Shown: positions 17,055 through 45,850, counted from the stretch's first letter. The stretch is DNA of 64,000 nt from Deltaproteobacteria bacterium (GCA_031273455.1 JAISRZ010000065.1:46907-110906); one strand, 5' to 3'. Numbers and translations are program-made. The notes: generated from the sequence alone by a model not told the origin.

Positions 17055-17158
17055 AGGCCGTAAATAGTTAATTTTAATGGCTGATTTTAGGTTTTTAGGG
17101 CCGGAAAGAGTGGGTAAAAGAAAACTTATTGACGCCTGACGCTTAAGGTGGGGTTTTT

Positions 17159-17451: not shown

Positions 17452-17472
17452 TTAACAATTTGTTAGTACCAT

Positions 17473-17762
17473 TTAATAGCATTGAATCAGAGAAAAAGAG
17501 ACTAAACAATCGAAACAAAGAAATACATAAACCATTCCAACATCTCCAATTATGACATCATCATTTAATGAATCAATTTGAGCATAAAAAGTCATTTTTT
17601 TTGACAATGTGGACATAAAGGAATTTCTTCGGTTTGAATCCAATCAGGCTTACCACCTATTTTATTTCTATGCCCAAAAATAGAATTATCTTCATCGGTC
17701 ATGTATTTAAAATGAACTTTATCTTTATCTATACGAATCAATTTAACTTCTGGCAGTAACAT
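17473..17762 (-). pseudogene. YwqG/DUF1963-like Zn-ribbon protein interrupted at a poly-A(8) tract
   Basis: MLLPEVKLIRIDKDKVHFKYMTDEDNSIFGHRNKIGGKPDWIQTEEIPLCPHCQKK then TGA. Adding one A restores MTFYAQIDSLNDDVIIGDVGMVYVFLCFDC...*. The homopolymer is at 17595-17602. Confidence 0.45.
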
Positions 17763-17851
17763 ATTTATACCTATAACAAATTCAGTTAATTACTAGGCAA
17801 AAGCTTGGAATATAGCTAAACCTCTTATGTTCGGCCTACAAAAACCCATGG

Positions 17852-17894
17852 GTCGTATAAAATGGTGTCGTATAAAATGGTGTATAAAATGGTG
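17852..17894 (+). repeat. Tandem repeat: gtcgtataaaatggt x2 plus a 13-nt partial copy
   Basis: Counted directly in the AT-rich patch. Confidence 0.85.
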
Positions 17895-18049
17895 ACGACC
17901 GTATCGGTGCGGTAATGATTAATTATCAAATGTTTTAGAAATAAATTCTCAATAAACCAAACTTCAAGTCACAGCGATATGATCATTTCAATTTATTTTT
18001 TTTTCTTAAAATATTTAGATGAATATTATATTTACGATAAAAAACCATT

Positions 18050-23010: not shown

Positions 23011-23693
23011 TCCAAATCAACCTCCTACCCTTAGAGTCTTTCCGACAGAACACGAGCGGTCGTATCATGGTGTCCATCTTCGCGGTCACCATGATTTTAG
23101 TGACCATGGGGCTCTACGTCTACTATGACTTTTTCATGGGCTCGGAACTGGAAGAGTTAGAAAAAAAACAAACCACGATCACCCAGTCCTTAAACCAAGC
23201 CAAAGGGAAAACCGCCGCGGCTTTAAAAGAAGCGACCACCTTCGTCGATGACATGGTTAAGGTCACGGCCATCTCGGATTTGGAGGAAAGGCGAAGGGAT
23301 CAGACCCGGCTCTTTATGGGTTTGGCCAGTCAGGTCATGAACCAGACCTCTTGGTTAGTCAGTTGCTCCCATGATAAAGGGTTAGTCCGCATTAAGGGCA
23401 TGGCCATCGATCATGAGGAAGTGGCCAAGTTTTTGAGCCGTTTGCAAGCTTTGCCCATTTTACGGAACGTGGAGCTACTAAGGGCGGCCGAGGACACGGT
23501 CATTAACGGGGTCAGCTTAGTCACTTTCGAGCTTTCGGCCAACACCGTCTTCGCTGAGTCGTCCTTGGTGACCTCAGGCTTACCCTCGGAGTCGTTGCCC
23601 CCCAAAGAGACTTTGGTTAAATTAGTGACCATCGCGGCCCCCAATCTCGCGGAGGCCTTAAAACCTAAACTAGACGGCAAAAAGAAGCTTTAA
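23007..23693 (+). CDS. pilN: Type IV pilus assembly protein PilN
   Basis: MIQINLLP N-terminal signature, a single TM segment and a coiled coil. Confidence 0.85.
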   Translation: MIQINLLPLESFRQNTSGRIMVSIFAVTMILVTMGLYVYYDFFMGSELEELEKKQTTITQSLNQAKGKTAAALKEATTFVDDMVKVTAISDLEERRRDQTRLFMGLASQVMNQTSWLVSCSHDKGLVRIKGMAIDHEEVAKFLSRLQALPILRNVELLRAAEDTVINGVSLVTFELSANTVFAESSLVTSGLPSESLPPKETLVKLVTIAAPNLAEALKPKLDGKKKL

Positions 23694-23749
23694 GGCTATT
23701 ATAGGCCACCAAAAGGGGCCTTTAATGGCTTCTTCCCCAGAGGCGCGAT

Positions 23750-24400
23750 ATGGCTAAACCTCCAGCCCAGAAACCGAAGAGCAAAGAGGATTTTTTCGCC
23801 AAAGTGGCTAAGCTCAAAACCGGCCCCAAGGTGGGTATTTTGGTGGGCGGCTTGGCTTTGGTGATTGGCGTTTTTTACATGCAATTTTATTCGCCTTACG
23901 AGGCTAAGGTTTTGGGATTGCGTAACTCCATCGCTGATTTGGAAAAACAAAACAAAGCCGAAGCCGATAGCTTGGCTAAATATAAGCCACTTAACAACTA
24001 CGCGCAATCAGTGACCACCACGTATGACTATTTAAAGTCCTATTTGACCACTGATAACGAGATTCCTAAACTAATCCAGATCATCTCCGATCTTGGGACC
24101 CAAGCCGGGGCTAAGGTGTCGCTTTTCGCCCCCAAGCCGGCTAAACCCTTGGATAACTACGCTGAGATCGAGTTCCAGATGAACCTGGAAGGCACCTTTT
24201 TAAACGTTTTAAAGTTCTTTTATAGCTTGAGCCAAATGGATCGGATCATTAACATCCGCTCCGTGACCATGGACACCCCGGTTATGACCGATGGCATGGT
24301 CATGAACCTGTCGGTGAAATGCCAGGGCTCAACTTACCGGTTTTTAACCCCGGAAGAGATCGCCTTCTTACAAAGTAAACCCACTGGCAAGAAGAAATAG
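23750..24400 (+). CDS. pilO: Type IV pilus assembly protein PilO
   Basis: Its position, single TM segment, coiled coil and C-terminal alpha/beta domain fit PilO. 216 aa. Confidence 0.8.
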   Translation: MAKPPAQKPKSKEDFFAKVAKLKTGPKVGILVGGLALVIGVFYMQFYSPYEAKVLGLRNSIADLEKQNKAEADSLAKYKPLNNYAQSVTTTYDYLKSYLTTDNEIPKLIQIISDLGTQAGAKVSLFAPKPAKPLDNYAEIEFQMNLEGTFLNVLKFFYSLSQMDRIINIRSVTMDTPVMTDGMVMNLSVKCQGSTYRFLTPEEIAFLQSKPTGKKK

Positions 24401-24467
24401 TGACCGTGGCTCCGCGCGGCCCTTTTTGTTGACTCGTTGGCAAGGACAATAGATTGGAGCGCCAGGT

Positions 24468-25346
24468 ATGAATCGTTTTTTTCGCCGAATCCGCCCTTGT
24501 CTGACTCTCTGGCGAGTCGGGGTCGGGGTTTGGTTGATATTAATAATAGGCTGGGCCACCCCAAGCTTAGCTCAAGGGCCAAACGCTCCGGCTTCGCCCG
24601 GTTTGGCCCCGAACGCTAGCGGTCGGGCCTCGAACGGTCCCCCGCCACCACCGGCTCCGCCCCAAGCCCCCAACGCCGACGGCATGAGCTTTCGGGTGGA
24701 ATACTCCAGCCCGGGCGGCCAACCTGGGGCCACGCCCTCGGCCCCGCCCACGGCCCCGGGGATTGACCCGAAAGCGGTCAATAGCCCCGTGCCGCCGACC
24801 CCGCCCAAACTAGGGACGCCGACCGAGGCCGCTCCCCCGGCGGAGCCGGAAAAGCCTTTAACGCCCCAGGAAATCGAGGCCAACCAGCGGAAAGAGGAGC
24901 TTTTAAACGAGCTAAGATCCTGGCGCGAGTCGGTCAATCGCGACTACGCCTTCACCGGGGCGACCATATCCGATCCATTCATGCCCGTGGAGTCCGTGGC
25001 CCAACCCAAACCGCCCACCGTGGCTGGCGAGGAGGAATTGCGGGCTAAACCCATGATCCAGAAGCTGGCCTTAAACCAGTTCACCTTAGTGGCTATCGTG
25101 GTGGGGAAGAACGGCGAGAACAACCTGGCCATGGTCGATAGCGGGGGCAAGGGCTACATCGTGAAAAAAGGGGATCTCATTGGCAACAATAAAGGGTATG
25201 TCAAGGAAATCACCCAGAATAAGCTAATTGTGGAAGAGCCGGAGATCATCAGTCGGGCCTCTAAGTCGCCTCGGATCACCGAGTTTAGGTTAAACGCCCT
25301 AGGCGATAACGATGGCGAAATCACTTTATCCTCTTACGGGGAGTGA
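24468..25346 (+). CDS. pilP: Type IV pilus assembly protein PilP (with a long Pro-rich linker)
   Basis: N-terminal hydrophobic segment. The C-terminal beta domain reads FTLVAIVVGKNGENNLAMVDSGGKGYIVKKGDLIG. It sits between pilO and pilQ. Confidence 0.75.
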   Translation: MNRFFRRIRPCLTLWRVGVGVWLILIIGWATPSLAQGPNAPASPGLAPNASGRASNGPPPPPAPPQAPNADGMSFRVEYSSPGGQPGATPSAPPTAPGIDPKAVNSPVPPTPPKLGTPTEAAPPAEPEKPLTPQEIEANQRKEELLNELRSWRESVNRDYAFTGATISDPFMPVESVAQPKPPTVAGEEELRAKPMIQKLALNQFTLVAIVVGKNGENNLAMVDSGGKGYIVKKGDLIGNNKGYVKEITQNKLIVEEPEIISRASKSPRITEFRLNALGDNDGEITLSSYGE

Positions 25347-25413
25347 GGTTTTGACTTCAAGCTAACCACAAAATATAGCGTTCTATTTTGCCCGCCACTA
25401 TATGCGGGAATCC

Positions 25414-25449
25414 CTGGCCCAACCGATTCGGTTGGGCCAGTGTCGTTTT
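25414..25449 (+). terminator. Strong hairpin after pilP (possible terminator or processing site)
   Basis: ctggcccaacc-gattc-ggttgggccag is a perfect 11-bp stem, followed by tgtcgtttt. Confidence 0.4.
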
Positions 25450-25809
25450 AAAGGCCAAGCTTAAGTAATTGGTCATAATTAATTCTCCAATTGTCTTAGA
25501 GCGCTCTTCTTTTTTCTCAAAGGTTTAGAGCGAGTGGGAATTTTTTAAAAATTTTTTTTAACCGTCCAAGGCGTTGTATTTATTATGGGTTCTGTCTTAT
25601 AGCGGGTTTTTCATTCTACAAAAGCCTCTCTTCGGATTAATGAACCTCTTGATAAATGCCGATTAAATCAATGACAGAAGAATGGTTATAAGCCATTCTT
25701 TTTCGGGCGATAAGGCCCAATATTATTCTGACCGGATTCGTTCGACGGGGTTTAAAGTCCCCCGGTCTGGCCCCTAAGCGCCCAGACTTTTTTTAAGGAG
25801 ACACCCAAA

Positions 25810-27282
25810 ATGACAATAAGAGCTTTTTTAAAAAGGCGGCTAGGGCTTCTAACGCTAGCGGTGACGATGACGTTAATTTTCGCTTCCCTGGCCCAAGCCC
25901 AGACGTTCGCTCCGCCGCCTTCCCCGGCCCCCACCGTCACGCCGGTCGCGGCCCAAAATAGCCCTAACCCCTTAGGGAATCTACCGGAAGTCATTGTTGA
26001 CCCCATGGTGTCCCTGTCCAATAAGACTTACTCCGGGGAAAGAATCACCTTGGATTTCCAGAACGCGGACATCCATAACATCCTCCGTTTAATTGGCGAA
26101 GTCTCCGGCATGAACGTGGTGGTCTCGGATCAGGTCTCCGGCAAAGTGACCTTAAAACTGAAGAACGTCCCTTGGGATCAGGCCTTGGACATTGTTTTGG
26201 CCTCCAAGAACTTGGGCGCCATTTCCAATGGCAACGTTTTGCGGGTGGACTCCTTGGACAGCATCCGCCGGGCCAACCCGGATCCCTCGGACCCCTCGGC
26301 CAAAGTCACCTTGGTGAAAGACGTCTTCACCCCCAAGTACTCCTCGGTCTCCTCAGTGGCCGCGGAGATGGACAAATACAAGAGCATGCGCGGCCGGGTG
26401 CGGGTCATTGGCAATGACATCTACGTGGAGGATGACGTGGAGACCTTTAAGACTCTCCGCCAGATCTTCCAGCGGAACGACAAGGTCACCAAGCAGATCT
26501 TGATCGAGGCCCGGATCGTGGAGGCCACCACCGACTTCACCCAGACCTTAGGCGTCCGTTGGGGCGGTTACGGTAGCAATATGCAGGGCCCAGGCATGTC
26601 CACGCGGCACCCTGACGGCGGCCTCACCGGCGTCAGCTCCGACTACGCCGCGGACGTGGCCGCCGGGGGCACCGCGGCCGGTTATATGCCGGGCGAGCAT
26701 TTTGGGGTCTTAGACGTGGGCGGCGGTAACGCCATGCGCTTAGGGTACGGCTTTTTAAACAAGGCTGGGACCATGCTCTTAAACGCTGAGCTGAACGTCA
26801 ACGAGACCTTAGGCGAAACCAAGGTCATCTCGGCCCCGCGCATCATGGCCTCCAATGACAACGAGGTTTACATTAAGCAGGGCACCCAGGTCCCTTACCA
26901 GTCCTCCTCGGCCAACTCGGGCACCAACACCGAGTTTAAAGACGCCTTAATGGAGCTTCGGGTGACCCCGCACATCGAGGAAAATGGCCAGATTATCTCC
27001 CTGGACATCACCCTGACCAAAGACAACGTGGTCCGGGTGGAAGGCGATAACGAGCCCTCCATTGACAAAAAGGAAGCCAAAACCAAACTGATGGTCCGGG
27101 ACGGCGAGACCGTGGTCATTGGCGGTATCATTGAGGACACCCAGTCCAATAACTCTAAAAGGGTCCCGGGCCTTCACGCCATCCCGCTATTGGGCTGGCT
27201 CTTTAAGAACCGGGCCGTGGAGTCCAATAAGCGCGAGCTCCTGGTCTTTATCACGGCTAACATCATCCCCATTAACATCTAA
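25810..27282 (+). CDS. pilQ: Type IV pilus secretin PilQ
   Basis: Signal peptide. N-domains (ITLDFQNADIHNILRLIGEVSGMNVV, VTLKLKNVPWDQALDIVL). C-terminal secretin motif VPGLHAIPLLGWLFKN...RELLVFITANII. Confidence 0.92.
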   Translation: MTIRAFLKRRLGLLTLAVTMTLIFASLAQAQTFAPPPSPAPTVTPVAAQNSPNPLGNLPEVIVDPMVSLSNKTYSGERITLDFQNADIHNILRLIGEVSGMNVVVSDQVSGKVTLKLKNVPWDQALDIVLASKNLGAISNGNVLRVDSLDSIRRANPDPSDPSAKVTLVKDVFTPKYSSVSSVAAEMDKYKSMRGRVRVIGNDIYVEDDVETFKTLRQIFQRNDKVTKQILIEARIVEATTDFTQTLGVRWGGYGSNMQGPGMSTRHPDGGLTGVSSDYAADVAAGGTAAGYMPGEHFGVLDVGGGNAMRLGYGFLNKAGTMLLNAELNVNETLGETKVISAPRIMASNDNEVYIKQGTQVPYQSSSANSGTNTEFKDALMELRVTPHIEENGQIISLDITLTKDNVVRVEGDNEPSIDKKEAKTKLMVRDGETVVIGGIIEDTQSNNSKRVPGLHAIPLLGWLFKNRAVESNKRELLVFITANIIPINI

Positions 27283-32202: not shown

Positions 32203-32238
32203 AAAAAAGCCTGGGCTCTAGCGGTCAGCCCAGGCTTT
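32203..32238 (-). terminator. Intrinsic terminator of the two-gene beta-barrel/FecR operon
   Basis: aaagcctgggct...agcccaggcttt forms a 12-bp stem. On the minus strand it is followed by TTTTTT. It lies 37 nt past the stop at 32275. Confidence 0.6.
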
Positions 32239-32274: not shown

Positions 32275-34173
32275 TCACTGTGGCCAATCTTTGATCCGCC
32301 CATCATGGACGCTTAAACTGGGCGGGACTAAGGCGGGTGGAACCGGCGGATTGGGGATAGGGGACGTTGGGGTTATGATCACCTGCCCGGAGGTGGCCTG
32401 GTTTCCAGGCTCCTGGTTGGGGTTAGCCATATTGACCGTCAAAACGCCCGTGGCCGGGAACATTCCTCCGCTGGAGCCGCCAACCTTAAAGTCTAAATTA
32501 CCGTTGGGTAGGTTGATCGTAAAGGTTGAGCCAGAAAAACTACCAGAGCCCCCGTGCAAATAAATATCCACTTCGTCCTCAAACCCTGATGGAAGGCCGT
32601 TATTGTAAATGACGTCAACCGAGCCATCAAAAATCCTACTGTTATAACGATCAATATTAAAGTTAAAAGAATTTTGGGTGGCGACCATGCCGGTTGGAAT
32701 ATTAAAAGTCCCTTCCATATACAACAAAGGTTTATCCGCGACCCCGCCATTGAAACCGAAAGACGTGGGCAGGGTTAATGGCCCTCCAGAGGTGACCACG
32801 TAATCCAAGTTAAGGCTACCCATCGTTGAGTCACCGTAGTCAACCGTCCCCGAGGAAGATAAAAAACCAGTCATGACAGTGGCTGGCCCGAAATAACCAC
32901 TAACCGTACCGCCGCCAAAGGTTTCTTCCTGAAATTCATTGTAATACGTCATGGCGGTTGAGGGAAAGCCGGAGATAGTGTAGTTGAACGTGTTGGGATC
33001 AATAGAGCCAGTTCCCCTAAAAGCGCTTAAGGACGATTCTTTCGTGTTAACTCCGACCGTGTACCTAATGTCGATGTCAAAAAAAGCGTTAAATATTCGT
33101 AAGGTCTCTAAATCAATGGTGAACCCCATAGAGTTAGAGACAACTTGTTGGCTCGGAAAAAGAGTGGTGGGAAAGGTAAACCACCCAATGACGTGGGCTT
33201 TGGGGCCGTTCAGCCCCGGGGGCATAGCTGGTTGAGTGACGTCATTGACCGCTAGATCGACTATAGAGTTATCGGGAACGTAGACCGCTGTTTCAGCTTG
33301 GACCGCCGCTTGGCCGGTTTGGGCCAGGTGGGCCGTTTGTAAAGGGCTTGGCCCAGCTTCGCTAGTTTCGGTGGTTTCCATGATAATGGCGTTAACCCCA
33401 GCGGAGGGGCTAAGATTAGGGTTAGCTAAGACCGCCGCTAAGAACCCACCGCCCTCGGCGCTAAAAACCTCGCCTAAAGTCTCGCGGTCCACTCTTTCTT
33501 GGGTGGTGGCCGGGACGTTTTTCCACGAGCCGCCCGCGGGGATATTAACGCCACTCGCGGCTAGGTAGGCGGTGTATTCCCTGGACGTCAAAATGGCCGA
33601 TTGGCCCGGGCCGGTCAGCTTTAACTCCCCGTTCCGACCGTAAGTTTCCACTTGGCCTTGTCGCGTGTTAATCCGGGAGGTTCCGTCCAGCTCAACCGCC
33701 ACGGAAAAGTCCGTGCCCCGGACCGCGGCTAGAATCAAAGGAGCGACTAGCCTTAGATTTTGCCCAGGTTGGACCGAGACCTCCACTTGGCCAACCGGGA
33801 TGGACAACTGGGGCGTTTCCCCGGGGCCATCGGCGGCGGTTTTTAACTGGCCAAGGGGCGACCAGGGGAGAGCGTTACGGCTGACCGCGCCATCGTATTT
33901 AACCTTGGAGCCGCCCAACACTTTAACGTTGATCTGGCCATCGGACACGGACAATTGGACTTCCCCGCCGCCGATTAACTCAATGGTGTCCCCTGGGGCT
34001 AGCTTTTGCCCCTCTTTAGCTGGCGTCCGCCGACCGCGGCTTAAGATTTGGGCTTTACCGGCGATACTGGTTATCTGGGGGGCCTCGTTTTGGGCTCGGG
34101 CCGGGCTGGTTAGAGCTAGGCTGGCCAATAACGCGATTAACAAAAGCGAAAAATATCTATTAAAGGATCTCAT
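32275..34173 (-). CDS. Secreted FecR-domain protein with two C-terminal beta-rich modules (candidate type 11 secretion cargo)
   Basis: Sec-type signal LLIALLASLALTSPARAQ with no lipobox. FecR pattern: APGDTIELIGGGEVQLSVSDG...LILAAVRGTDFSVAVELDGTSRINTRQGQVE. Two related C-terminal modules follow: GFTIDLETLRIFNAFFDIDI...GGGTVSGYFGPATVMTGFL and SFNFNIDRYNSRIFDGSVDV...GGSSGGMFPATGVLTV. Confidence 0.65.
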   Translation of the reverse strand: MRSFNRYFSLLLIALLASLALTSPARAQNEAPQITSIAGKAQILSRGRRTPAKEGQKLAPGDTIELIGGGEVQLSVSDGQINVKVLGGSKVKYDGAVSRNALPWSPLGQLKTAADGPGETPQLSIPVGQVEVSVQPGQNLRLVAPLILAAVRGTDFSVAVELDGTSRINTRQGQVETYGRNGELKLTGPGQSAILTSREYTAYLAASGVNIPAGGSWKNVPATTQERVDRETLGEVFSAEGGGFLAAVLANPNLSPSAGVNAIIMETTETSEAGPSPLQTAHLAQTGQAAVQAETAVYVPDNSIVDLAVNDVTQPAMPPGLNGPKAHVIGWFTFPTTLFPSQQVVSNSMGFTIDLETLRIFNAFFDIDIRYTVGVNTKESSLSAFRGTGSIDPNTFNYTISGFPSTAMTYYNEFQEETFGGGTVSGYFGPATVMTGFLSSSGTVDYGDSTMGSLNLDYVVTSGGPLTLPTSFGFNGGVADKPLLYMEGTFNIPTGMVATQNSFNFNIDRYNSRIFDGSVDVIYNNGLPSGFEDEVDIYLHGGSGSFSGSTFTINLPNGNLDFKVGGSSGGMFPATGVLTVNMANPNQEPGNQATSGQVIITPTSPIPNPPVPPALVPPSLSVHDGRIKDWPQ

Positions 34174-34244
34174 TTAGGTCTCTCCGTAGGCTAAGAGCGT
34201 CAAGTTTGATTTTTGGACTTAGGAACCCTTAAAAAAACCCCAAC

Positions 34245-35531
34245 TTAAAAACCCCAGGCCACGCCTAGACCAAAGGTGTGCTGGGCGTAGTCATAAAGCG
34301 GGCTGTTGGAGTCGTCCCGGTTATAAGCGTAATTAAGCTCGAGGCTCAAGCTTTCGTTGATCTGGTAAGTCACGTCCACCCCGGAGCGGAAACGTTGGTC
34401 TTTCCGGTCGCCAATACCCAGTAAATCGTCCAAAATGGTCGCGGGGCCGCGATATTTTTCCACCGTGACGCTGGCGTGGGGGGAGATTTCCCAGTCCTCA
34501 TGGGGCCTTAAGGTTAAACGAACCGGGGCCGACCAACCCGTGTAGCCAAAGTTGTCCGCGTGGGGCCGACCCCAGAGGAAAACCGCGCCCACGGTTAAAG
34601 AGTGCGGGCTGTCCCCGAAAAAGAAGCGCCCGTGCTGGCCTAAAGCCCCGTAAGCCCCGTTTCTAGCTGGGGAGCGTTGATAGTCGCGCCAATCTAAGTT
34701 GAACTGGCTAATCAAATGGAACTTATTGGAGACGGCTCGTAAGTAAGTTAGCTCTGGGCCTAGGGCCGAGACGTGGTTGGTTAGGTCGTAATCAAAGATC
34801 TCGCCTTTAACTTTAAACTCAAATAGATTTCGCCCTTTAGCGTAGCGGAGACCCGCCCCTAGCCTAAACCATTGCCATTCCCGGGAATGGAGGTCGTTAA
34901 GCTTGGAGTCCTCATTTCCCCGAATGTAGAGACCAGCGTCCCCGACCAAGCTCCAAGGGCTCTGGTCGGCGAAGCGGTGGCTAAGGTTAAAGTTAGCCCC
35001 AAAATAGGCCCCGGCGGACTCGATCTTTTCCGTGCCTGGGAGATTCCAGTTAAAAGGCCCTATGGAGTACGTCAAGTCATCGGGGGCCCCTTGGTTGGTG
35101 TTGGTGTCGTAAATGAACCCGGCCCGCAACTTTAGGTGGTAATCCGTGGCCGGACCCAAAGCTGAGCCGGATTTAATGGCCACGATTTGCTGACTTTCGT
35201 TTAAGAGGATGGGATCGGACGGGAACCGGCGCAATAACTCTTGGTAGATCGCGTCGGCTTCGTCATACCGTCCGGTGAGAGCCGCGCTCCGAGCTTGGCC
35301 CAGTAAAAGAGAGCTGTGGCCGGGGAATCTTTGGAGCAAATTGACAAAGATTCCATGAGCTTTTTCCGCTTGGCCCGAAGCCATTAAAATCTCGGCCTCG
35401 CGCCATTGGTTGACGGAAGCCACGTCCGGTTTGGCCGCTAAGGCTGGGGACACTGAGACGAAAAAGAAAATCGCGACTAAAACGTGTCTTATCCACATGT
35501 GTCTTATCCAGGCGTGTCTTTTCCAGGCCAT
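34245..35531 (-). CDS. Outer-membrane TPR plus beta-barrel protein, Slam/DUF560-like (candidate T11SS translocon)
   Basis: Signal peptide. A TPR region of about 100 aa (ASGQAEKAHGIFVNLLQRFPGH, GRYDEADAIYQELLRRFPSDP). Then about 300 aa of amphipathic strand-like sequence ending ...YAYNRDDSNSPLYDYAQHTFGLGVAWGF, an aromatic OMP beta-signal. The start may be the internal Met at 35498. Confidence 0.5.
   Translation of the reverse strand: MAWKRHAWIRHMWIRHVLVAIFFFVSVSPALAAKPDVASVNQWREAEILMASGQAEKAHGIFVNLLQRFPGHSSLLLGQARSAALTGRYDEADAIYQELLRRFPSDPILLNESQQIVAIKSGSALGPATDYHLKLRAGFIYDTNTNQGAPDDLTYSIGPFNWNLPGTEKIESAGAYFGANFNLSHRFADQSPWSLVGDAGLYIRGNEDSKLNDLHSREWQWFRLGAGLRYAKGRNLFEFKVKGEIFDYDLTNHVSALGPELTYLRAVSNKFHLISQFNLDWRDYQRSPARNGAYGALGQHGRFFFGDSPHSLTVGAVFLWGRPHADNFGYTGWSAPVRLTLRPHEDWEISPHASVTVEKYRGPATILDDLLGIGDRKDQRFRSGVDVTYQINESLSLELNYAYNRDDSNSPLYDYAQHTFGLGVAWGF
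35482..35526 (-). repeat. 15-bp tandem triplication at the 5' coding end of the beta-barrel gene
   Basis: acgtgtcttatccac / atgtgtcttatccag / gcgtgtcttttccag on the plus strand. It encodes the repeats W(K/I)RH(A/M/V) in MAWKRHAWIRHMWIRHV. Confidence 0.8.
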
Positions 35532-36043
35532 CTTTAAAACCTCATTCTAAAATCAATTCCTTTACGCCGAGCGTAAAAGCGTAATATGTTTTATTTTAAG
35601 TTAATTTTTGTAAAATAATGTAAAATAAGTTATATAAAAAATTCGCAAAAATTAATATACGCTATGTATAATGATTTTACTTAAAAACGTGATTTTAAAA
35701 ACAAATCGCGATCAATAAATGGTTGGTTAAAAAAGCTGGCTGTTTTTTAACCACGCCAAACCTTAGAATAAAATGAGTATTTTATCAATAGGAAGTTTAA
35801 TCTTCGATACTAATTTTGTTGTAGGGGCGTAAGGGGGCATAACCTAAAGTTAAAACAAGCGTAACTTAACGGTTGGCGAAATTCCTAGCCCTAAAATTTC
35901 GCCGCTAGGGGCTTTCGGGCAAATAAGCGCGTTGTTTAAGGCTAAAAAACGCGGCGAGGATAATAACTTAGCTGAAAATGGTTTAGAAAGTTGTGAGGCG
36001 CGAAATCAGTTAGGCGATAAACAGCCTAAGGTTAATCTTTAAC

Positions 36044-36070
36044 CAAAAAAATCCGGCCTTAAGGCCGGAT
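36044..36070 (-). terminator. Intrinsic terminator downstream of topA
   Basis: atccggcc-ttaa-ggccggat hairpin, followed on the minus strand by T7. Confidence 0.6.
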
Positions 36071-36146
36071 CTATAAAAAGGTTAGCCCCCCGAAAAGCGC
36101 GGGCTAGGGGGTTAAGTTTCGGGGGGCGTCAAGCCTTAAGCTTTAG

Positions 36147-39100
36147 TCATAGCTCTTGGGTGGTTTGGGCGGCCCCGCCTAAAACGGGCTCGTCATTGCG
36201 GGTCCGGTAGGTGGTCTGACAAGACCGGTTGGAGCAGCTATAAAAGTCATAGTCCTCGCCAGTTTTCCGACTGGTGCCCTTCCGGCGGATTAAGGGGCTG
36301 TGGCAAGCCGGGCACTTAAAATCGGATAAGACCGGTTTATCGCGGGGCGGGTTTTTCGGCCCAGGGGCGCCGTTATCGTCCTGGTAGGTGGTCCCGCAGT
36401 TCCGGTCCGAGCAAGCCCAGAAGTTGTAGCCAGTGGGGCCATCTTTAGTTAACCGCTTTAGCCGTTGGCCGCAAACCTCGCAGACGTGGCTCGTTAGCTC
36501 GCTTTTGCCGGATTTCTCCCCGGGTTCCCCATTATTGTCCTGGAATTTGGCCCCACAGTTCCGGTCCGAGCAAGCCCAGAAGTTGTAACCATTAGGCCCT
36601 TCCTTAACGATGTGGTTCAGAGCCAAACCGCAATCCGGGCACTTAAACTCGGAAAGGGTGGATTTACCGGATTTCTCCCCGGGCTGGCCATTATTGTCTT
36701 GGAACTTGGCCCCGCAGTTGGCTCGATCCGAGCATGCCCAGAAGTTGTAACCATTGGGCCCGTCTTTAATCACATGGTCTAAAGACGATTGACCGCAGGC
36801 TGGGCATTGGACACTCGTGTTTCGCCGACTGCCTTGCTTTTCCCCAGGTTTACCGTTATCGTCCTTAAACGTGGAGCCGCAATTGGCCCGATCCGAGCAA
36901 GCCCAAAAGTTGTAACCATTGGCCCCTTCTTTAACGATGTGGCTAAGGGGCTGGCCGCAAGACTGGCACTTTTCGTCCGTTAAGGAGGAGGCTTGGTTTT
37001 TATCACCGGGTTTACCGTTATCGTCCTTAAACGTGGAGCCGCAATTGGCCCGATCCGAGCAAGCCCAAAAGTTGTAACCATTGGCCCCTTCTTTAACGAT
37101 ATGGTTCAGGGGCTGGCCGCAAGACTGGCATTTTTCGTCCGTTAATGAGGCGGAGGCTTGGCTCCTTTCCCCGGGTTTACCGTTATTGTCCTTGAACTTG
37201 GCCCCACAGTTGTCCCGATCCGAGCAAGCCCAGAAGTTGTAACCATTAGGCCCGTCTTTGACTAGGTGGTTAAGCGGTTGGCCGCAAGAAAGGCAGAGCT
37301 CATCGGAAACTTCCCTTCGGCCTTGCTTTTCCCCAGGCGAACCGTTATTGTCCTTGTACTTGGCCCCGCAGGTTTGCGTGTTGGAGCAAGCCCAAAAGTT
37401 ATAGCCGTTAGGCCCATCTTTCACGAGGTGGCTAAGCGGCTGGCCGCAAGACTGGCATATTTGGTCCGATAAAGCGGCCCGTTGGCTTTTTTCCCCGGGC
37501 GATCCGTTATTGTCCTTGAACTTGGCCCCGCAGTTGTCCCGATCCGAGCAAGCCCAGAAGTTGTAACCATTAGGCCCGTCTTTAACCAAGTGGATTAAAG
37601 GTTGGCCGCACTCCTGGCAATTCTTGTCGGAAACTTCCCTTCGACCTTGCTTTTCCCCAGGTTGACCGTTATTGTCCTTGAACTTGGCCCCGCAACTATC
37701 CAAGTTGGAGCAAGCCCAAAAGTTATAGCCAGTTGGCCCGTCTTTGACGATGTGGTTTAAAGGCTGGCCACAATCCGAGCATAATTGATCTGTCAATTCG
37801 TTTCTCCCGCTTAACTCCCCAGGCGCGCCCTGGTTATCGCTGAAGATGGCCCCGCATTGGGTTTTGTTGGCACAAGCCCAAAAAGCGTAGCCATTAGGTC
37901 CAATTTTAACTATATGATATAAATTTTGACCGCATTTAGGACATAGTTCGTTGGTTAGCTCACTTTTATGGTTTTGGGCCCCGGGTCTATTGTTCTGGTC
38001 TTTAAAAGTGGCCCCGCAACGCTCTCGGTCCAGGCAAGCCCAGAACCGGTAACCGCCTGGGCCCTCTTTGACAAAGCGCTTTAAGGGCCCGCCGCAAACC
38101 GGGCAATTGGCCCCATGGCCCACGCTAAATTTTTTCAGCTCGCTTTCTAAAACGTCATTGGCTTTACTGACCACGCTTAAGTAGTCCAGTTGGCCTTGGG
38201 CGATCTGATCGAGCTTTTCCTCCAAGAGCTTCGTGTACTCGTAGTCCACAAATCCAAAGGTGGATTTGAGGTAAGAGATGAGCTCATCGCCCAACTGGGT
38301 GGACTCTAACATCCGTTTTTTGTTTTCGACAATATACCCGCGGGTCATGATATTGTCTAAAATGGCGGCGTAGGTGGAGGGCCGGCCAATGCCTCTTTTC
38401 TCTAGCTCCCGGATGAGGGCCGCCTGGGTGAACCTGGGCGGTGGGTTGGTTTTACTGGTTTTAACCTTACTCCCAATAGGCGAATAGTTGGCCTTTAGGG
38501 TTAGCTTCGGAACCGGGTTATTGAGCTCAGCCGCGTCTTGCCGATCTTTAGACTCATCGGCCTGGTCCTCGGTTAAAACGGTTTTCCAGCCAGGCTCGAT
38601 TAATCGTCGGCCTTTAGCCTCAAAGACCGCTTTCCGGCCATTTAAGCTAGCCCCTAAGGTGGCCTTGGCCGTGGCGTAGGTGGCGTTGGCCAGTTGGCTC
38701 GCCATGGTCCGTTTCCAGATGAGATTGTACAAAGCTTGGGCCAAAGGGTCATCGCCGGCTTTATCCACTTTCATATCGGTAGGGCGAATGGCCTCATGGG
38801 CTTCCTGGGCCCCTTTGGGGGCCTTAAAGACCCGGGGCTCTTTGGGTAAGGGCCAATTTTTATCCCCAGCCACCTTGCGGATGTCTTTAATGGCTTCGTC
38901 CGAAAGGGCCTGGCTATCGGTTCGCATATAGGTGATGAGACCGGCCTCGTACAGCCTCTGGGCGATCTCCATGGTCTTTTTGGGGTTCAGCTTTAAATGG
39001 TTGCTAGCCGCTTGCTGAAGCGTGGAGGTGGTGAAAGGCGGGGGCGGGTTCTTTTGGGCCCGGCCCTCCTCATAGTCCTCCGCGGTGAGCGTTTTTAGGG

Positions 39101-39863
39101 CGGCTATTTCGGCGGCGATCTTCTTATCGACAAAACGCTCTTGCCCCGGCTCTAACCAGTTTTTAGGGTTCCAGACCGCCGTCCAGTTAGCGGTCGCCTC
39201 CAGACCTTCGCTCAAAACCGCGTCCTGGCCCTGGCTGGCCAAGGGGTCTGGGGCGGAACTCGAAAAAACGTTAGCCGGTTGAGGCCCAAAGTTTAGCTCC
39301 ACCCCGTAATAGGTCGTGGACTTAAAGCTCTGGATGGCCTGTTCCCGTTCCACGATGATCCGTAAAGCCGGGGTCTGGACTCGACCGGCGGACAAAGTTT
39401 TGCCCGCCACCCCCGAGACCGCTGGGGAGACCCCGTAACCCACCAGACGATCCAAAGTCCGCCGCCCGAGCTGGGCTTGGACCAGATTGTCGTCAATGGG
39501 CCTGGGGTTAGCCAAGGCCTTTTTAATGGCCGGGCTGGTTATTTCCGTGTAAGTGACCCGGGGCGGGTCCACTAAGTTTAAGGCTTCCTTTAAGTGCCAA
39601 GCGATGGCCTCGCCCTCCCGGTCTGGGTCAGTGGCTAAGAAGACCTCCTCGGCTTGGTCGGTTAAAAGCTTTAGATCTTTAATGACTTTTTGCCCCCGAA
39701 GCGTGGCTTCGTATTGGGGGACAAAGTCCGGCGGGTAAACGCCCGGGTGGTTGGGCGGCAGATCCCGGACGTGACCGATACTGGCGGCCACGCGCCATCC
39801 GGCCCCTAAAAAGGACTGGATTTTTTTTATTTTACCCGGTGACTCAACGATTAAAAGCTTCAT
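36147..39863 (-). CDS. topA: DNA topoisomerase I (type IA) with 12 C-terminal C4 zinc-ribbon modules
   Basis: Toprim N-terminus MKLLIVESPGKIKKIQSFLG...VASIGHVRDLP. Active-site Tyr context GLITYMRTDS. Then 12 repeats of C-x2-C-G-x-x-L-x-H-x-V-K-x-G-P-N-G-Y-N-F-W-A-C-x4-5-C-G (zf-C4_Topoisom pattern). The start was trimmed to the Met at 39863. Confidence 0.92.
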   Translation of the reverse strand: MKLLIVESPGKIKKIQSFLGAGWRVAASIGHVRDLPPNHPGVYPPDFVPQYEATLRGQKVIKDLKLLTDQAEEVFLATDPDREGEAIAWHLKEALNLVDPPRVTYTEITSPAIKKALANPRPIDDNLVQAQLGRRTLDRLVGYGVSPAVSGVAGKTLSAGRVQTPALRIIVEREQAIQSFKSTTYYGVELNFGPQPANVFSSSAPDPLASQGQDAVLSEGLEATANWTAVWNPKNWLEPGQERFVDKKIAAEIAALKTLTAEDYEEGRAQKNPPPPFTTSTLQQAASNHLKLNPKKTMEIAQRLYEAGLITYMRTDSQALSDEAIKDIRKVAGDKNWPLPKEPRVFKAPKGAQEAHEAIRPTDMKVDKAGDDPLAQALYNLIWKRTMASQLANATYATAKATLGASLNGRKAVFEAKGRRLIEPGWKTVLTEDQADESKDRQDAAELNNPVPKLTLKANYSPIGSKVKTSKTNPPPRFTQAALIRELEKRGIGRPSTYAAILDNIMTRGYIVENKKRMLESTQLGDELISYLKSTFGFVDYEYTKLLEEKLDQIAQGQLDYLSVVSKANDVLESELKKFSVGHGANCPVCGGPLKRFVKEGPGGYRFWACLDRERCGATFKDQNNRPGAQNHKSELTNELCPKCGQNLYHIVKIGPNGYAFWACANKTQCGAIFSDNQGAPGELSGRNELTDQLCSDCGQPLNHIVKDGPTGYNFWACSNLDSCGAKFKDNNGQPGEKQGRREVSDKNCQECGQPLIHLVKDGPNGYNFWACSDRDNCGAKFKDNNGSPGEKSQRAALSDQICQSCGQPLSHLVKDGPNGYNFWACSNTQTCGAKYKDNNGSPGEKQGRREVSDELCLSCGQPLNHLVKDGPNGYNFWACSDRDNCGAKFKDNNGKPGERSQASASLTDEKCQSCGQPLNHIVKEGANGYNFWACSDRANCGSTFKDDNGKPGDKNQASSLTDEKCQSCGQPLSHIVKEGANGYNFWACSDRANCGSTFKDDNGKPGEKQGSRRNTSVQCPACGQSSLDHVIKDGPNGYNFWACSDRANCGAKFQDNNGQPGEKSGKSTLSEFKCPDCGLALNHIVKEGPNGYNFWACSDRNCGAKFQDNNGEPGEKSGKSELTSHVCEVCGQRLKRLTKDGPTGYNFWACSDRNCGTTYQDDNGAPGPKNPPRDKPVLSDFKCPACHSPLIRRKGTSRKTGEDYDFYSCSNRSCQTTYRTRNDEPVLGGAAQTTQEL
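36220..38105 (-). repeat. Coding tandem array: 12 zinc-ribbon modules of about 47-54 aa
   Basis: The array runs from CPVCGGPLKRFVKEGPGGYRFWACLDRERCG to CPACHSPLIRRKG...FYSCSNRSCQ. I counted the units from the translation. Units 7 and 8 are almost identical at DNA level. Confidence 0.9.
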
Positions 39864-40555
39864 GAAATCCTTTGTAAAATATCTATAGCGGCCTAAAATG
39901 GCCAAACTAGACGGTCAAACTAGGGACCAAAAAAGAGCCCTTAAGGTCATCGCTTGGGGGCGAAAGCGAGTTTAGACCTTAGCCTGGGGCTCTCTGGATT
40001 TTGGGCCAGTTTAAAGAGATCATACACCATATTGGTCTTTTTGTCATCTCCTGACCGCTAACACCGAAAAGATATTTAATGATATATTCGGCTTTTGTTT
40101 AAGTCTAATCATCGTTTAATTAATATTTTATACACAATTACGATAGTGAATAGCTAAATAAGTAATTATATTCTATGTATTTATAAAAACAAGTTTATTT
40201 AATGACGTATAATTATTTTTTAAGTTTTAGGTTGGGTGAATTTAGAGGGAAATTAAAGTTTAACCGGTCAGCTTTCGTCTGGCTCAAAGATACCCTTAAA
40301 CCAGGCTCTTTTAGAGCCCAATTTAGCTTAAGTGGCTTATTTAATTAGATTTTTGGCTTTAAATTGGCCAGAGAAAAATATTTTAGGCTTTGGGGCGAGG
40401 TTTTAAAAGGGCCTTAAAAGGGTTAGCGAACGGTTAAAGTTAGGTGGATTTTTTTCGAAAAAACACTATACTGACCCCCAAGAAAAAGAACCTAAAAACG
40501 CTTTTTAAAGGCCTTTTAAGGGCCTTCGCTCAATCCACCCTAAGGGGGGAAGGTT

Positions 40556-42134: not shown

Positions 42135-43146
42135 ATGGACGATTTTAAGACCTCAACCTCTAAGAACAGACCTTCGAAATCGAAAGCCTCTAAGCCCAAG
42201 ACCTCAAAGCCTAAGGAGTTCCCATCGCCGCTGGCCGACCCGGTGTTTGGAGCGATTTTTGAGTCGGCCAACCTAAGCGGTCTGGCTCTTAAAAGTCTGG
42301 TCAACGCGATCTTGGCTGACTCCAAAGACCCAGAGATTGGCGATGTTCTGACAGTAACTCCCCAGAGAGTCCACTCGGGCGTGGGTAAACGCGGTGTTCG
42401 CCTAGACGTTGAAGCGACCACGACCACTAACGATTTTGTCAATGTCGAAGTCCAATTGCTCTCTTTTAAATTCATAAGCGATCTTCTTTTTTTGTACTCC
42501 CAGATGGCTTTAGAGTCCAACCTTAAAAGAGGAAGTAAACTCAAAGATGATTTTAAAATAAGGCCACGTTCGATCTCTGTCGGTATCCTGGACTATATCC
42601 TAAGGCCCAATGGGAAAAATTTTCATCAGGTTGCGGAACTATATTTCCGCGAAGAACCTCGGGAACTCCTGGTCAACAATTGGGAACTACACTTCCTTCA
42701 GTCGCCGATATTTTAAGAGACAAACCCTGAGGTGACCAATCCGTTTCAGCTTTGGATTATGGCTATAACCAAGGCCCCTGGCCTTAAAATATCCACGCCT
42801 AAAGGTAGTTGAAATGGATGAAAATTTGAAAAAATTTTATGAGACCGATGAGGGTTTCGCCCAGTACGTTGACCGCCATGATTTGGTAGGGTCGCGTCCG
42901 AGCGTTAAGAGAGCCTATCGTAAGTTTGCGATAGAGCAATATCTGATAGCGAGTGAAATGGCCCTTAGGTCCGCCGAGGATAAAGCCGAGGCCATCATGA
43001 ATTTATCGTTGACCGCCTTCAGGACGGGATCGTCTGAATCTGACGATCGTGGCGTCGCGGAAACATTGGAAAAAATCGGTGTCCCAAAAGACATTATCAT
43101 TAAAGCTCGGGCCATGGTCCAAGCCGAACGCAAGAAAAAAGGTTGA
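42135..43146 (+). pseudogene. Rpn-family PD-(D/E)XK nuclease / putative transposase (TIGR01784-type), split by at least two frameshifts
   Basis: The N-terminal ORF has ADPVFGAIFES...GVRLDVEATTTTNDFVNVEVQ (D...ExQ nuclease core) and ends ...ELHFLQSPIF*. A second frame reads ETNPEVTNPFQLWIMAITKA. A third frame (42814-43146) carries the family C-terminal region. Confidence 0.6.
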
Positions 43147-43820
43147 AATATCAGAAAAGTTACTTTATCAGCGCTAATAATCCTAATTTTGGTATAAAGT
43201 TAATTAGAGATAAAACAGCCTAGATTAATTAGCCTGATATATGCCTTTAAAGGCCTTAGGAGAATATTAATTAGTAAGCGCTGAATTAAGATATTCATTC
43301 ACGGTTTTTTAGGCCATTAATTCCAATTCTTAATTAATAAAAATATATTAGAAATTACTTTTGAGCTTATACACCATAAAAATTTTGTTTATTTTCTGTA
43401 TATATAAAAAATTTAGCAAAAACTTCATGAACATTGTTACTGATTTCTTATTTTGATCTTAAGCGACTAATGAATATAAATTTAATTTATGATAATTTAA
43501 AAGTAAAATGATCGACATTGTTTTTAATGAAATTTTTCTAAAAAACTGATAGAGAAGACAGTATAATCAAACTTTGAAACTATCTCTAAACCAGATACCT
43601 AAGCCTCAGGCTCTGAGGTGGGTGGGCGTCTGGTTGAACGCTGACGGAATTTTACTCTAAAAATGGTGAATTGTTTTTATCTTGACAATTAGTCGCTTTT
43701 CGTTTAATTTATTTGGGGTTTTTAATTTTAGCTTCAGGATTCAAAGGTCAGTTGAGACAGAAATTAGTTTGGCTAAAGCCCGGCCATAGGGCGCTTAAAT
43801 ATCAAAATTCTTGGCCCACA

Positions 43821-43887
43821 GGCGCGGCGGTGGTCGCGCCCAGATCCGCCCTTAACCCCTATTTGGGTTTGGCGGATTTATTTTTTT
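43821..43887 (+). promoter_or_regulatory. Structured thrS leader: a GC hairpin followed by a terminator-like hairpin plus U-tract
   Basis: ggcgcg-gcggtggt-cgcgcc (43821-43840). Then atccgcc...aaccc-ctattt-gggtt...ggcggat followed by ttattttttt (43844-43887). The structure ends about 25 nt before the thrS ATG. Confidence 0.35.
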
Positions 43888-43912
43888 CCCGACATAAGGA
43901 CAACGTTTAACG

Positions 43913-45850
43913 ATGACATCTTATAAGGTTCGCCAGGCTAACGATAAGGTTCTGGAGGTGGAATGGCCCCAGAGCCACCGGCCCAGTGGGGCCGAGCTCT
44001 TCGCCTTAGCCGGTCTACCCAAAAAGGGGCCAGGCCAGCCTTTAGCTTATCGGGACGAGCGGGGGCTCTGGGATTTAACCGCCCCGGTGACCGCCGACGC
44101 GGTCAGCCCAGTGACGGCCAAAGACCCGGAAGGGTTGGATTTGCTCCGGCATAGCGTGGCCCATATCTTAGCTGAGGCGGTCATTAAGGTCTTTCCCGAG
44201 GTCAAGGTGGCCATTGGCCCCAGTATTGAGGACGGGTTTTACTATGACTTCGATAAGCCCGAGCCTTTCACCCCGGAGGATCTTGATAAGATCGCCGCGG
44301 TCATGAGCGACATCGTTAAAGAGGGTCAACCTTTCGCCCGTCAAGATATCACCGTGGACGAGGCCATTAAGCGGTTTACCGGTTTAGGCGAAGTTTATAA
44401 AGTCGAGCTCATCGAGGACTTGGCGGCTAAAGGGGAAAGCCAAGTTAGTTTATATCAGTGCGGTAATTTTATCGATCTGTGCCGGGGCCCCCATATCCCC
44501 AACACCTCCCTGGGCGGGGCTTTTAAGCTTTTGTCCGTGGCCGGGGCTTACTGGCGGGGCGACTCCAACCGGACCATGCTCCAGCGGATCTATGGGACGG
44601 CCTTTTTTAGCCCCAAAGAGTTAAGGGTCCACTTGGACCTTTTGGAGGAGGCCAAAAAACGGGATCACCGCCGTTTAGGCCGGGAATTGGACCTTTTTTC
44701 CCTCCACGAGGATATTGGGGGCGGTTTGGTCGTCTGGCACCCCAAGGGCGCCCTTTTACGGACGATTTTGGAGGGGTTTGAGCGGGGGGAGCATCTAAAA
44801 AGAGGCTACCAGGTGGTCATGGGCCCGCAGATCTTAAAGGCCGAGCTCTGGAAGAAAAGCGGCCACTTGGATTACTACCGGGAAAACATGTATTTCACCG
44901 AGGTGGATGAGCAGCCCTACGCCATTAAACCCATGAACTGCCTTTCTCACATGTTTATTTACAAAAGCAAGATCCGCTCCTTTCGGGACTTGCCTTTGCG
45001 CTTTTTTGAGCTGGGCACGGTCCAGCGGCAAGAGAAAAGCGGGGTCCTCCACGGTCTAACCCGGGTGCGGCAGTTCACCCAGGACGACGCGCACATCTTC
45101 TGCGCCCCGGCCCAAGTGCCTGGGGAGATCCAGAAGGTCTTGGAGCTGGTCCGGGACATGATGGCCGCCTTTGGCTTTGACTACGAGATGGAACTGTCCA
45201 CCCGCCCGGAAAAGAGCATTGGCTCGGACGCCGATTGGGAACTGGCCACCGGGGCTTTGATTTCCGCCCTAAAGACCATGGATCGGCCCTACGAGTTAAA
45301 CGAGGGCGATGGGGCTTTTTATGGCCCCAAGATCGACATTAAGCTTAAGGACGCCTTAGGCCGCCGCTGGCAGTGCGCCACCATCCAGTGCGACTTCACC
45401 TTGCCTGACCGCTTTGATCTGAGTTACACCGATAGCGACAACCAGCGGAAAAGGCCGGTCATGCTCCATCGGACGGTTTTTGGCAGCTTGGAGCGGTTTA
45501 TTGGCGTTTTAATTGAGCACTTCGCCGGGGATTTTCCCGTATGGCTGGCCCCGGTCCAAGGGATCGCCTTAACCGTGACCCAAAGGGCCGATGAGGCGGC
45601 CGCGGCTTTCCAGAAGCGGTTAATAAAGCTAGGCTATCGGGTGGAATTGGACTTGAGAAACGAGAAGCTTGGCTTTAAAATACGAGAGGCTCAACTAGCC
45701 AAAATTCCTTTTATTCTAGTTTTTGGGGACAAAGAAGTGGCCGAAGGGGTGGCTTCGGTCCGGCGGCGCGGTCAGGAGCTGGGCTCCATGACTTTAGAGG
45801 CTTTGGTGGATTTATTGGGTCCCGAGGCCCAGATACCCAATTGGGATTAA
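43913..45850 (+). CDS. thrS: Threonine--tRNA ligase
   Basis: 645 aa with TGS, editing and class II core domains ([29 protein letters not shown]) and an anticodon-binding C-terminus. Confidence 0.97.

Follow-up and report, generated by a model that had tools for sequence, protein, structure and literature searches.

What role does an outer-membrane barrel of the Slam/DUF560 family play when the gene beside it encodes an exported FecR-domain protein? This question is raised by two genes located on the minus strand of a 64,000-nucleotide stretch of DNA of a Deltaproteobacteria bacterium (GCA_031273455.1 JAISRZ010000065.1:46907-110906; the whole stretch is hereafter called the window, and positions are counted from its first nucleotide). 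A first-pass annotation, made from the sequence alone, had proposed that the two genes constitute a type 11 secretion system (T11SS), with gene 1 encoding the translocon and gene 2 a FecR-domain cargo carrying two TbpB-like barrel modules. What had been seen in the sequence is confirmed here, apart from the likeness to the TbpB/fHbp last-strand motif, and the interpretation is supported in part. The analysis establishes to which family gene 1 belongs and how it is built, how the domains of gene 2 are arranged, and that the two are conserved as a pair; in relatives it shows an association of such pairs with genes for CHASE2 sensors. The pairing suggests an undescribed use of the Slam/DUF560 secretion family. 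Our preferred reading, to which we assign a probability of roughly 0.5, is a type-11-like system moving the beta modules, or the whole gene 2 protein, to the cell surface.

The barrel protein, its FecR-domain partner and the beta modules

Gene 1 (34245-35531, minus strand) encodes a predicted outer-membrane protein of the Slam/DUF560 family, composed of 428 amino acids (aa). Its N-terminus (MAWKRH...VSVSPALA/AKPD) has the appearance of a Sec-type signal peptide. Residues 45-110 are matched by the Pfam profiles TPR_16, TPR_19 and TPR_14, and residues 133-428 by PF04575 (SlipAM/DUF560), which is covered from position 3 to 288 of 288 with a score of 22.9 bits (cut-off, 22). In NCBIfam, PgaA gave a faint match to the TPR part. 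The search for homologues yielded 31 other proteins, several of which are named "surface lipoprotein assembly modifier" by NCBI. PF04575 is matched by 25 of the 26 aligned family members (best E value, 6.8e-13), and TPR_Slam (PF24575) by six homologues and, faintly, by the window protein (E 0.16). As judged by these profile comparisons, the membership of gene 1 in DUF560/Slam is borderline from its own score and solid at the level of the family.

The AlphaFold2 model of the protein (mean predicted local distance difference test score, pLDDT, 90; predicted template modelling score, pTM, 0.71) contains (i) a signal-peptide helix, (ii) six TPR-type helices at residues 37-121 (35169-35423, minus strand), which together with the Pfam matches delimit the predicted periplasmic TPR domain, and (iii) 14 long strands, placed by DSSP at residues 129-427, with an extra small hairpin at residues 153-164. 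The predicted barrel thus extends from residue 129 to the last residue, 428 (34248-35147, minus strand), and the sequence ends ...HTFGLGVAWGF, with an aromatic terminal residue, as is usual for outer-membrane barrels. In a Foldseek search, the best PDB matches of the model were 14-strand OmpG structures (template modelling score, TM, of about 0.7 normalised to the target). BcsC (E 4e-10) and PelBC (E 2e-8) were also among the matches, with TM scores of 0.3-0.4 (0.31-0.39 for BcsC). Since no solved Slam structure was present among the PDB matches, the term "Slam fold", when used for gene 1, rests on the Pfam match and the strand count. The model agrees with the signal peptide, TPR part and strand-rich part recognised in the first-pass annotation, and the Slam/DUF560-like character proposed there is supported by the PF04575 score, by the matches of the homologues and by the 14 modelled strands.

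Gene 2 (32275-34173, minus strand) encodes a FecR-domain protein of 632 aa with two C-terminal beta modules. Its N-terminus, MRSFNRYFSLLLIALLASLALTSPARA/QN, contains an A-x-A cleavage site (A-R-A/Q) and no cysteine, so the protein is predicted to be exported by Sec and not lipidated. The cleavable signal peptide is the sole hydrophobic segment, and a beta domain follows it directly. The only Pfam family found in the protein is FecR (PF04773), which matches residues 111-176 with 25.6 bits (cut-off, 24); in the relatives of gene 2 the same domain is detected with E values of 1e-10 to 6e-15 and scores of up to 55.8 bits. A Sec signal without a lipobox and a FecR domain, both noted in the first-pass annotation, are therefore confirmed. 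The whole FecR-type region (residues 28-255; 33409-34092, minus strand) is the best-conserved part of the protein. It is followed by an acidic linker of 69 residues (residues 256-324; 33202-33408, minus strand; isoelectric point, 4.05), rich in Ala, Pro, Val and Thr and sharing 18-35% identity with the linkers of homologues. The identification of gene 2 as a classical FecR anti-sigma factor was considered and rejected, since it has neither an anti-sigma domain nor a transmembrane helix, and is not accompanied by a gene for an extracytoplasmic function (ECF) sigma factor.

The C-terminal part of gene 2 is composed of module 1 (residues 325-480; 32734-33201, minus strand) and module 2 (residues 481-632; 32278-32733, minus strand). 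The relatedness of the two, which had been claimed in the first-pass annotation, was verified in two ways: a profile built of module-1-type sequences alone detected module 2 with an E value of 1.5e-11 (42 bits, compared with 7.9 bits for the best of 300 shuffled controls), and hhalign aligned the modules with a probability of 97%. Direct BLASTP comparison gave a weak match (E 0.24). By these sequence comparisons the modules are true duplicates, module 2 being a diverged copy of module 1. They share a motif present throughout the family, F-x-F-x-[VL]-D-L-x-x-G-x-I-x-N-A ... G-G-S-G ... F-x-I-x-G-F. In the AlphaFold2 model of residues 321-632 (pLDDT, 92.8; pTM, 0.86), which was built with an alignment of the matches of an exhaustive search, both modules are all-beta and consist of hairpin-connected meander strands, approximately 10 per module (DSSP). 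The 14 strands anticipated for gene 1 and the two all-beta modules anticipated for gene 2 were thus obtained, but the modules have about ten strands each and not the eight that had been predicted.

Altogether, 38 instances of the module were recognised across the related loci described below, with one, two or nine tandem copies per protein. Each is approximately 140-150 aa in length, acidic, free of cysteine and rich in Gly, Ser, Thr and Asn, with a grand average of hydropathy (GRAVY) of about 0. The proteins terminate with ...DWPQ, ...GTRTQ or ...GTLTK, and the modules have no aromatic beta-signal at the C-terminus. An exhaustive HMMER search with a profile of the double-module C-terminus gave 33 matches in 1.84 billion representative proteins. 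FecR was found in 11 of the 32 aligned C-terminal sequences (the window fragment plus 31 homologues), and no other Pfam domain recurs among them. The mean pairwise identity within the group of two-module homologues is 58% for the FecR region, 34-38% for the modules and 63% for the Slam partners.

By sequence, the modules show no detectable resemblance to the known cargo barrels with which the first-pass annotation had compared them. None of the Pfam or NCBIfam models matched the module in the searches made. In particular, no match to TbpB_B_D (PF01298) or to the lipoprotein C family was obtained with gene 2, nine of its relatives, the 32 C-terminal sequences or 32 isolated modules at E values of up to 10; the isolated modules gave scattered chance matches (e.g. 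Pax7 and FimH) at this level. Of the two Pfam domains expected in gene 2, PF04773 was found and PF01298/TbpB_B_D was not. The module profile matched no PDB sequence at E values of up to 10, and the probability assigned by hhalign to an alignment of the modules with the barrel of fHbp (lipoprotein C type; sequence verified against PDB entries) was 0.1. A Foldseek search of the PDB and a viral structure library with the two-module model gave no match at E 1e-3 or better (best, 1.2e-3). Almost all of its weak neighbours are closed meander barrels: a fusion of green fluorescent protein, BOA lectin, Fsa2-type pericyclases, avidin, porins and OmpW. They include fHbp (E 0.09; probability, 0.41; TM, 0.21-0.27). 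These results do not establish the designation "TbpB-like". The match to the last-strand motif (G-x-F-Y-G-P-x-A) was rejected, as the corresponding segment (G-x-F-G-P-A-T) falls where conservation in the module alignment is lowest.

Conserved pairing and neighbouring CHASE2 genes

A scan with the gene 1 family, limited to one genome per species, yielded 34 loci; when two metagenome contigs and the window are added, 31 loci have a recognisable Slam homologue. The relatives of gene 2 were obtained from the open reading frames (ORFs) of loci fetched in this way via gene 1. A word-indexed homologue search with gene 2 itself returned only two relatives, probably because low-complexity words swamped its candidate list, and a rerun with a 15-sequence alignment added FecR-only proteins. 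A survey of DUF560 homologues for FecR-fusion neighbours had been suggested in the first-pass annotation. In 26 of the 31 loci, an ORF combining FecR with the module either shares the strand of the Slam homologue at a distance of up to 400 bp or directly adjoins it; a contig end truncates three of the remaining loci. A chance adjacency of the two genes was rejected on the basis of this count. All of the partners join FecR to the same C-terminal module.

The paired loci have two gene orders. In the window and its six closest relatives, the Slam gene is followed by a two-module partner, while in most of the remaining paired loci a one-module partner precedes the Slam gene. The host range covers the Desulfovibrionaceae, and the hosts in culture include Desulfovibrio cuneatus, Desulfovibrio sp. 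OH1186 and strain Smac51. Further pairs originate from termite-gut metagenome-assembled genomes (MAGs) assigned to Deltaproteobacteria, Candidatus Adiutrix, Deferribacteraceae, Synergistaceae and Burkholderiaceae. For the last three of these groups the assignment comes from binning and calls for caution.

The number of modules and of pairs may be high. The 1551-aa partner encoded by locus L013 (566-5221, plus strand) contains one FecR domain followed by nine tandem modules, and looks like a repeat adhesin. The MAG Im510_bin51 (termite-gut, deltaproteobacterial) carries four paralogous pairs of Slam and FecR-module genes (L003, L004, L005 and L006). One of these loci also contains part of another FecR-type gene, coding for 122 aa, which may be a pseudogene (L005, 5413-5781, minus strand).

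The neighbourhoods of the related pairs contain a second recurrent component. Of the 31 loci, 13 have a gene for a CHASE2 sensor at a distance of no more than 6 kb, often directly after the Slam gene. These genes encode CHASE2 proteins with HD-GYP-type output (L002 and L009) or CHASE2 adenylate/guanylate cyclases (L020 and L025). In five loci (L012, L014, L019, L022 and L026), a gene for a metallo-beta-lactamase-GAF-HD protein is inserted ahead of that for the CHASE2 protein; in three of them this protein has approximately 680 aa and directly follows the Slam homologue (L012, 9378-11414; L014, 9556-11592; L026, 6924-8972; plus strand). The composition of these clusters suggests a module for cyclic-nucleotide turnover tied to the pair. 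No CHASE2 (PF05226) gene was found in the 64-kb window or near its six closest relatives.

More distant FecR proteins also adjoin CHASE2 kinases or cyclases. One such cluster (L039, 338-10942) is comprised of genes for a Crp-family regulator, a FecR protein, a CHASE2 guanylate/adenylate cyclase and, after the cyclase, a 443-aa TPR protein, with type 1 secretion genes alongside. The TPR protein shares with gene 1 the TPR region and a YDSN motif at the start of the barrel (hhalign probability, 89%). Operons joining FecR-domain and CHASE2 proteins are known in Burkholderia (PMC5192318), and the CHASE2 cyclases of Sinorhizobium meliloti require NsrA, a barrel of the outer membrane, upstream of them (PMC7529298, PMC13001267). 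The factors recognised by CHASE2 domains are described as unknown (PMC5192318).

Secretion, sensing or both

Gene 1 is a protein of an already annotated kind. Like the Slam translocons (Slam1 and Slam2 of Neisseria, NilB and HrpB of Xenorhabdus and HsmA of Acinetobacter), it has a signal peptide, a predicted periplasmic TPR domain and 14-strand barrel and a match to the same Pfam family, and its gene adjoins that of a Sec-dependent partner with an all-beta C-terminus. All characterised DUF560 proteins are translocons (10.1101/2020.01.20.912956). Non-lipidated Sec-dependent cargo, e.g. the hemophilins, is known, and only few Slam homologues are reported from delta- and epsilon-proteobacteria (10.1101/2023.03.29.534853). 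The hosts of the present pairs differ from those of the Slam systems named above, being Desulfovibrionaceae, other Deltaproteobacteria and MAGs assigned to Deferribacterales or Synergistaceae. The window pair also differs in the borderline Pfam score, in the lack of a TonB or TonB-dependent receptor context, and in a partner devoid of the TbpB_B_D or lipoprotein C barrel.

The partner itself may be compared with the cargo of T11SSs, which, both known and predicted, joins a variable N-terminal domain to an 8-strand barrel at the C-terminus; this barrel belongs to the TbpB_B_D or lipoprotein C family and is responsible for targeting (10.1101/2023.03.15.532718). Gene 2 has in common with TbpB, LbpB, HpuA, fHbp, hemophilin/HphA and NilC the two-part layout, the C-terminal beta domain(s), the Sec signal and the adjacent translocon gene; a tandem duplication of beta units is shared with TbpB. 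Unlike this cargo, gene 2 shows no similarity to PF01298 or to the lipoprotein C barrel of fHbp (the structural match to fHbp having an E value of 0.09), has about 10 strands per module, and combines a conserved N-terminus, which is always of FecR type, with variable C-terminal modules in 1-9 copies. We found no paper in the searchable literature that links DUF560 or T11SSs to FecR-domain cargo, in agreement with the first-pass annotation, which was aware of no description of this cargo class; in hemophilin loci, FecR is mentioned only as a neighbouring regulator gene. The combination of a FecR-plus-module partner, a missing canonical cargo barrel, a linkage with CHASE2 and the present host range likewise appears in no paper of that literature.

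According to the preferred reading, Sec would export gene 1, which would then form a 14-strand DUF560/Slam barrel in the outer membrane, with its TPR domain on the periplasmic side. Gene 2 would likewise leave the cytoplasm via Sec and be cut by signal peptidase I, after which gene 1 would recognise it; the contact would probably be made between the C-terminal beta modules of gene 2 and the TPR domain. Gene 1 would carry it over the outer membrane, whole or in part, so that the acidic modules rich in Gly, Ser, Thr and Asn end on the surface. We infer this translocation, as well as the part of gene 2 that would cross and whatever the modules may bind. The presence of CHASE2 cyclases, CHASE2 HD-GYP proteins and GAF-HD proteins beside the pair in relatives indicates that the pair probably served ancestrally in sensing at the envelope or in adhesion, with a coupling to cyclic-nucleotide signalling; metal piracy of the classical Slam type is probably not the role.

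A type-11-like system would explain the C-terminal position of the modules, their copy number, composition and fast divergence, and the expansion of paralogous pairs in one genome. The faster divergence of the modules compared with the rest of gene 2 supports a role at the surface, and so does their all-beta meander structure, the weak neighbours of which are nearly all closed barrels. Several observations weigh on the other side. The PF04575 threshold is cleared by gene 1 with a narrow margin (22.9 vs. 22 bits). The modules have no detectable homology to the TbpB_B_D and lipoprotein C barrels, which define all known cargo, they have about 10 strands and not 8, and even fHbp, the nearest of the cargo structures, matches with an E value of no better than 0.09. 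The N-terminus is always FecR and better conserved than the C-terminus, which is the reverse of the rule of a variable effector and a conserved targeting barrel. No TonB or TonB-dependent receptor gene was found nearby. In addition, FecR-type domains pair with CHASE2 sensors in operons without a Slam-family match (PMC5192318), which fits a periplasmic job for the FecR domain. Secretion by this pair, or by any of its relatives, is a prediction from sequences.

The link with CHASE2, which the first-pass annotation had not seen, provides a serious rival, the main one, that does without secretion, and we regard it as possible, if rather less than probable. It assumes an envelope signalling complex, in which gene 2 would remain in the periplasm, with its FecR domain and/or its modules docking on the TPR domain of the barrel. 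The barrel would act as an outer-membrane receptor or channel, and the signal would pass to an inner-membrane sensor, CHASE2 in the relatives and one encoded elsewhere in the present genome. Such a logic would be analogous to that of FecA-FecR, or of NsrA and the CHASE2 cyclases of S. meliloti. The CHASE2 genes near 13 of the 31 pairs, the CHASE2 kinases and cyclases adjoining more distant FecR proteins, the TPR/YDSN-motif protein after the CHASE2 cyclase of L039, the Burkholderia FecR-CHASE2 operons (PMC5192318) and the requirement for NsrA (PMC7529298, PMC13001267) are all consistent with it, as is the FecR region being the conserved part of gene 2. Gene 2 further resembles the products of described FecR/CHASE2 operons (the LysM-FecR protein and CHASE2 histidine kinase of Burkholderia BiofilmReg, and PA4035-4036 of P. 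aeruginosa) in being a secreted FecR protein with no anti-sigma part, and relatives of the window pair adjoin CHASE2 genes too, here for cyclases or HD-GYP proteins. The described operons, however, contain LysM instead of C-terminal beta modules and have no DUF560 barrel, whereas CHASE2 is lacking near the window pair and its six closest relatives. A complex confined to the envelope also leaves unexplained why a DUF560 partner should have a constant terminal beta module, why this module is multiplied to nine copies and diverges fast, and why one genome has four paralogous pairs, and it departs from the translocon function of all characterised DUF560 proteins (10.1101/2020.01.20.912956).

Secretion and sensing may also be combined in a trans-outer-membrane split sensor or adhesin, an idea that we consider unlikely, though it reconciles the behaviour of the modules with the conservation of FecR and the CHASE2 link. 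Only the modules would then be exported, the linker would be threaded in the 14-strand pore, and the FecR domain would serve as a periplasmic plug and transmitter; in relatives, it may contact cyclases or HD-GYP proteins at their periplasmic CHASE2 domain. Gene 2 has its folded N-terminal domain, its long linker of low complexity and its C-terminal repeats in common with retained or threaded surface proteins (the LapA retention module in LapE, inverse autotransporters and RcsF threaded via OmpA/C/F). The channel would here be a Slam-type barrel of 14 strands, neither TolC-like nor a fused barrel, and the likeness is one of analogy only. The split arrangement is faintly echoed by residues 34-80 of gene 2, which resemble the LapA retention module far below the NCBIfam threshold (18 bits vs. 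50), as is the case in 5 of 15 family members.

Two further explanations were weighed. The modules could be membrane barrels themselves, with gene 1 as a dedicated assembly or insertion factor, and OmpW, Pla/OmpT, porins and a small autotransporter barrel do occur among their weak Foldseek neighbours. This seems very unlikely for proteins that lack a C-terminal aromatic beta-signal and whose modules are acidic and polar (GRAVY about 0); nine tandem membrane barrels in the single protein of L013 would be implausible. Even less can be said for gene 1 as a TPR-porin for exopolysaccharide export (PgaA/BcsC/PelB), with gene 2 as a functionally unrelated neighbour. The structural matches to BcsC (E 4e-10) and PelBC (E 2e-8) and the faint match of PgaA to the TPR part agree with such an exporter. 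The TM scores for BcsC (0.31-0.39) are nevertheless far from the value of about 0.7 (normalised to the target) for OmpG, which the 14 modelled strands fit better than BcsC or PelBC, polysaccharide synthase genes were not found nearby, and the adjacency with gene 2 is kept across distant lineages. An exporter of the PgaA/BcsC type is thus disfavoured by both the 14-strand barrel and the lack of synthase genes.

Surroundings of the pair and implications

The pair constitutes a self-contained bicistronic unit. Its two co-oriented ORFs are separated by a 71-bp spacer (34174-34244, minus strand), and Shine-Dalgarno-like sequences precede both gene 1 (GAGG) and gene 2 (GGAGAG, within the spacer). 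Upstream of gene 1 lies a putative promoter region (35532-35830, minus strand) with a G+C content of 26%, compared with 54-55% in both genes; no convincing sigma-70 consensus was found on its minus strand. A strong intrinsic terminator (32203-32238, minus strand), predicted from a 12-bp GC-rich stem followed by T6 (-24.8 kcal/mol), is placed 36 bases past the stop codon of gene 2, and the next downstream gene is convergent. The arrangement reported in the first-pass annotation, i.e. the 71-bp distance, the AT-rich upstream region and the terminator, was found in full. A weak terminator-like hairpin with a T-run (34253-34269, minus strand) covers the final codons of gene 1 immediately upstream of the spacer and may attenuate read-through into gene 2.

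The neighbouring genes encode PilP and PilQ (type IV pilus), a flavodoxin, an AraC regulator, an aldo/keto reductase, a DUF4405 protein, topoisomerase I and ThrRS. Genes for TonB, TonB-dependent receptors, ECF sigma factors and polysaccharide synthases were not present among the scanned neighbours of the pair. PilP (24468-25346) and PilQ, a secretin (25810-27282), which were the genes scanned, form the end of a type IV pilus assembly cluster (21952-27282, plus strand) approximately 5 kb from the pair. On the other side, beyond the AT-rich region, lies the terminator (36049-36072) of an unrelated topoisomerase gene (36147-39905, minus strand). This gene encodes a 1252-aa protein of topoisomerase I type (Toprim and Topoisom_bac), whose C-terminal half contains about 13 near-identical zinc-ribbon repeats (C-x2-C-G...FWAC...CG), a number far above that of a typical bacterial TopA. 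Three patches of low G+C content (0.32-0.37, compared with a window mean of 0.51) were recorded at 17001-18000, 43001-44000 and 61001-62000, and a gene for a PD-(D/E)XK family transposase at 42135-42716 (plus strand); these may represent mobile or foreign DNA.

A single class of cargo domain, the barrel of TbpB_B_D or lipoprotein C type, has so far defined the T11SS. The DUF560 protein described here has a conserved partner without such a domain and of FecR type instead, and it occurs in strictly anaerobic gut lineages, including Desulfovibrionaceae, relatives of Candidatus Adiutrix and MAGs assigned to Deferribacterales and Synergistaceae. If the type-11-like reading is true, both the substrate rule of T11SSs and their taxonomic range would be wider than is recognised at present. 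The triad of a FecR-module protein, a Slam-like barrel and a CHASE2 sensor provides a concrete hypothesis for the input of CHASE2 domains. Should the split sensor or adhesin exist, the fast-evolving modules would sense events at the surface and pass them on to cyclic-nucleotide signalling; CHASE2 domains would thereby receive this input, and type 11 secretion would have a role beyond nutrient piracy and beyond the classical Proteobacteria.

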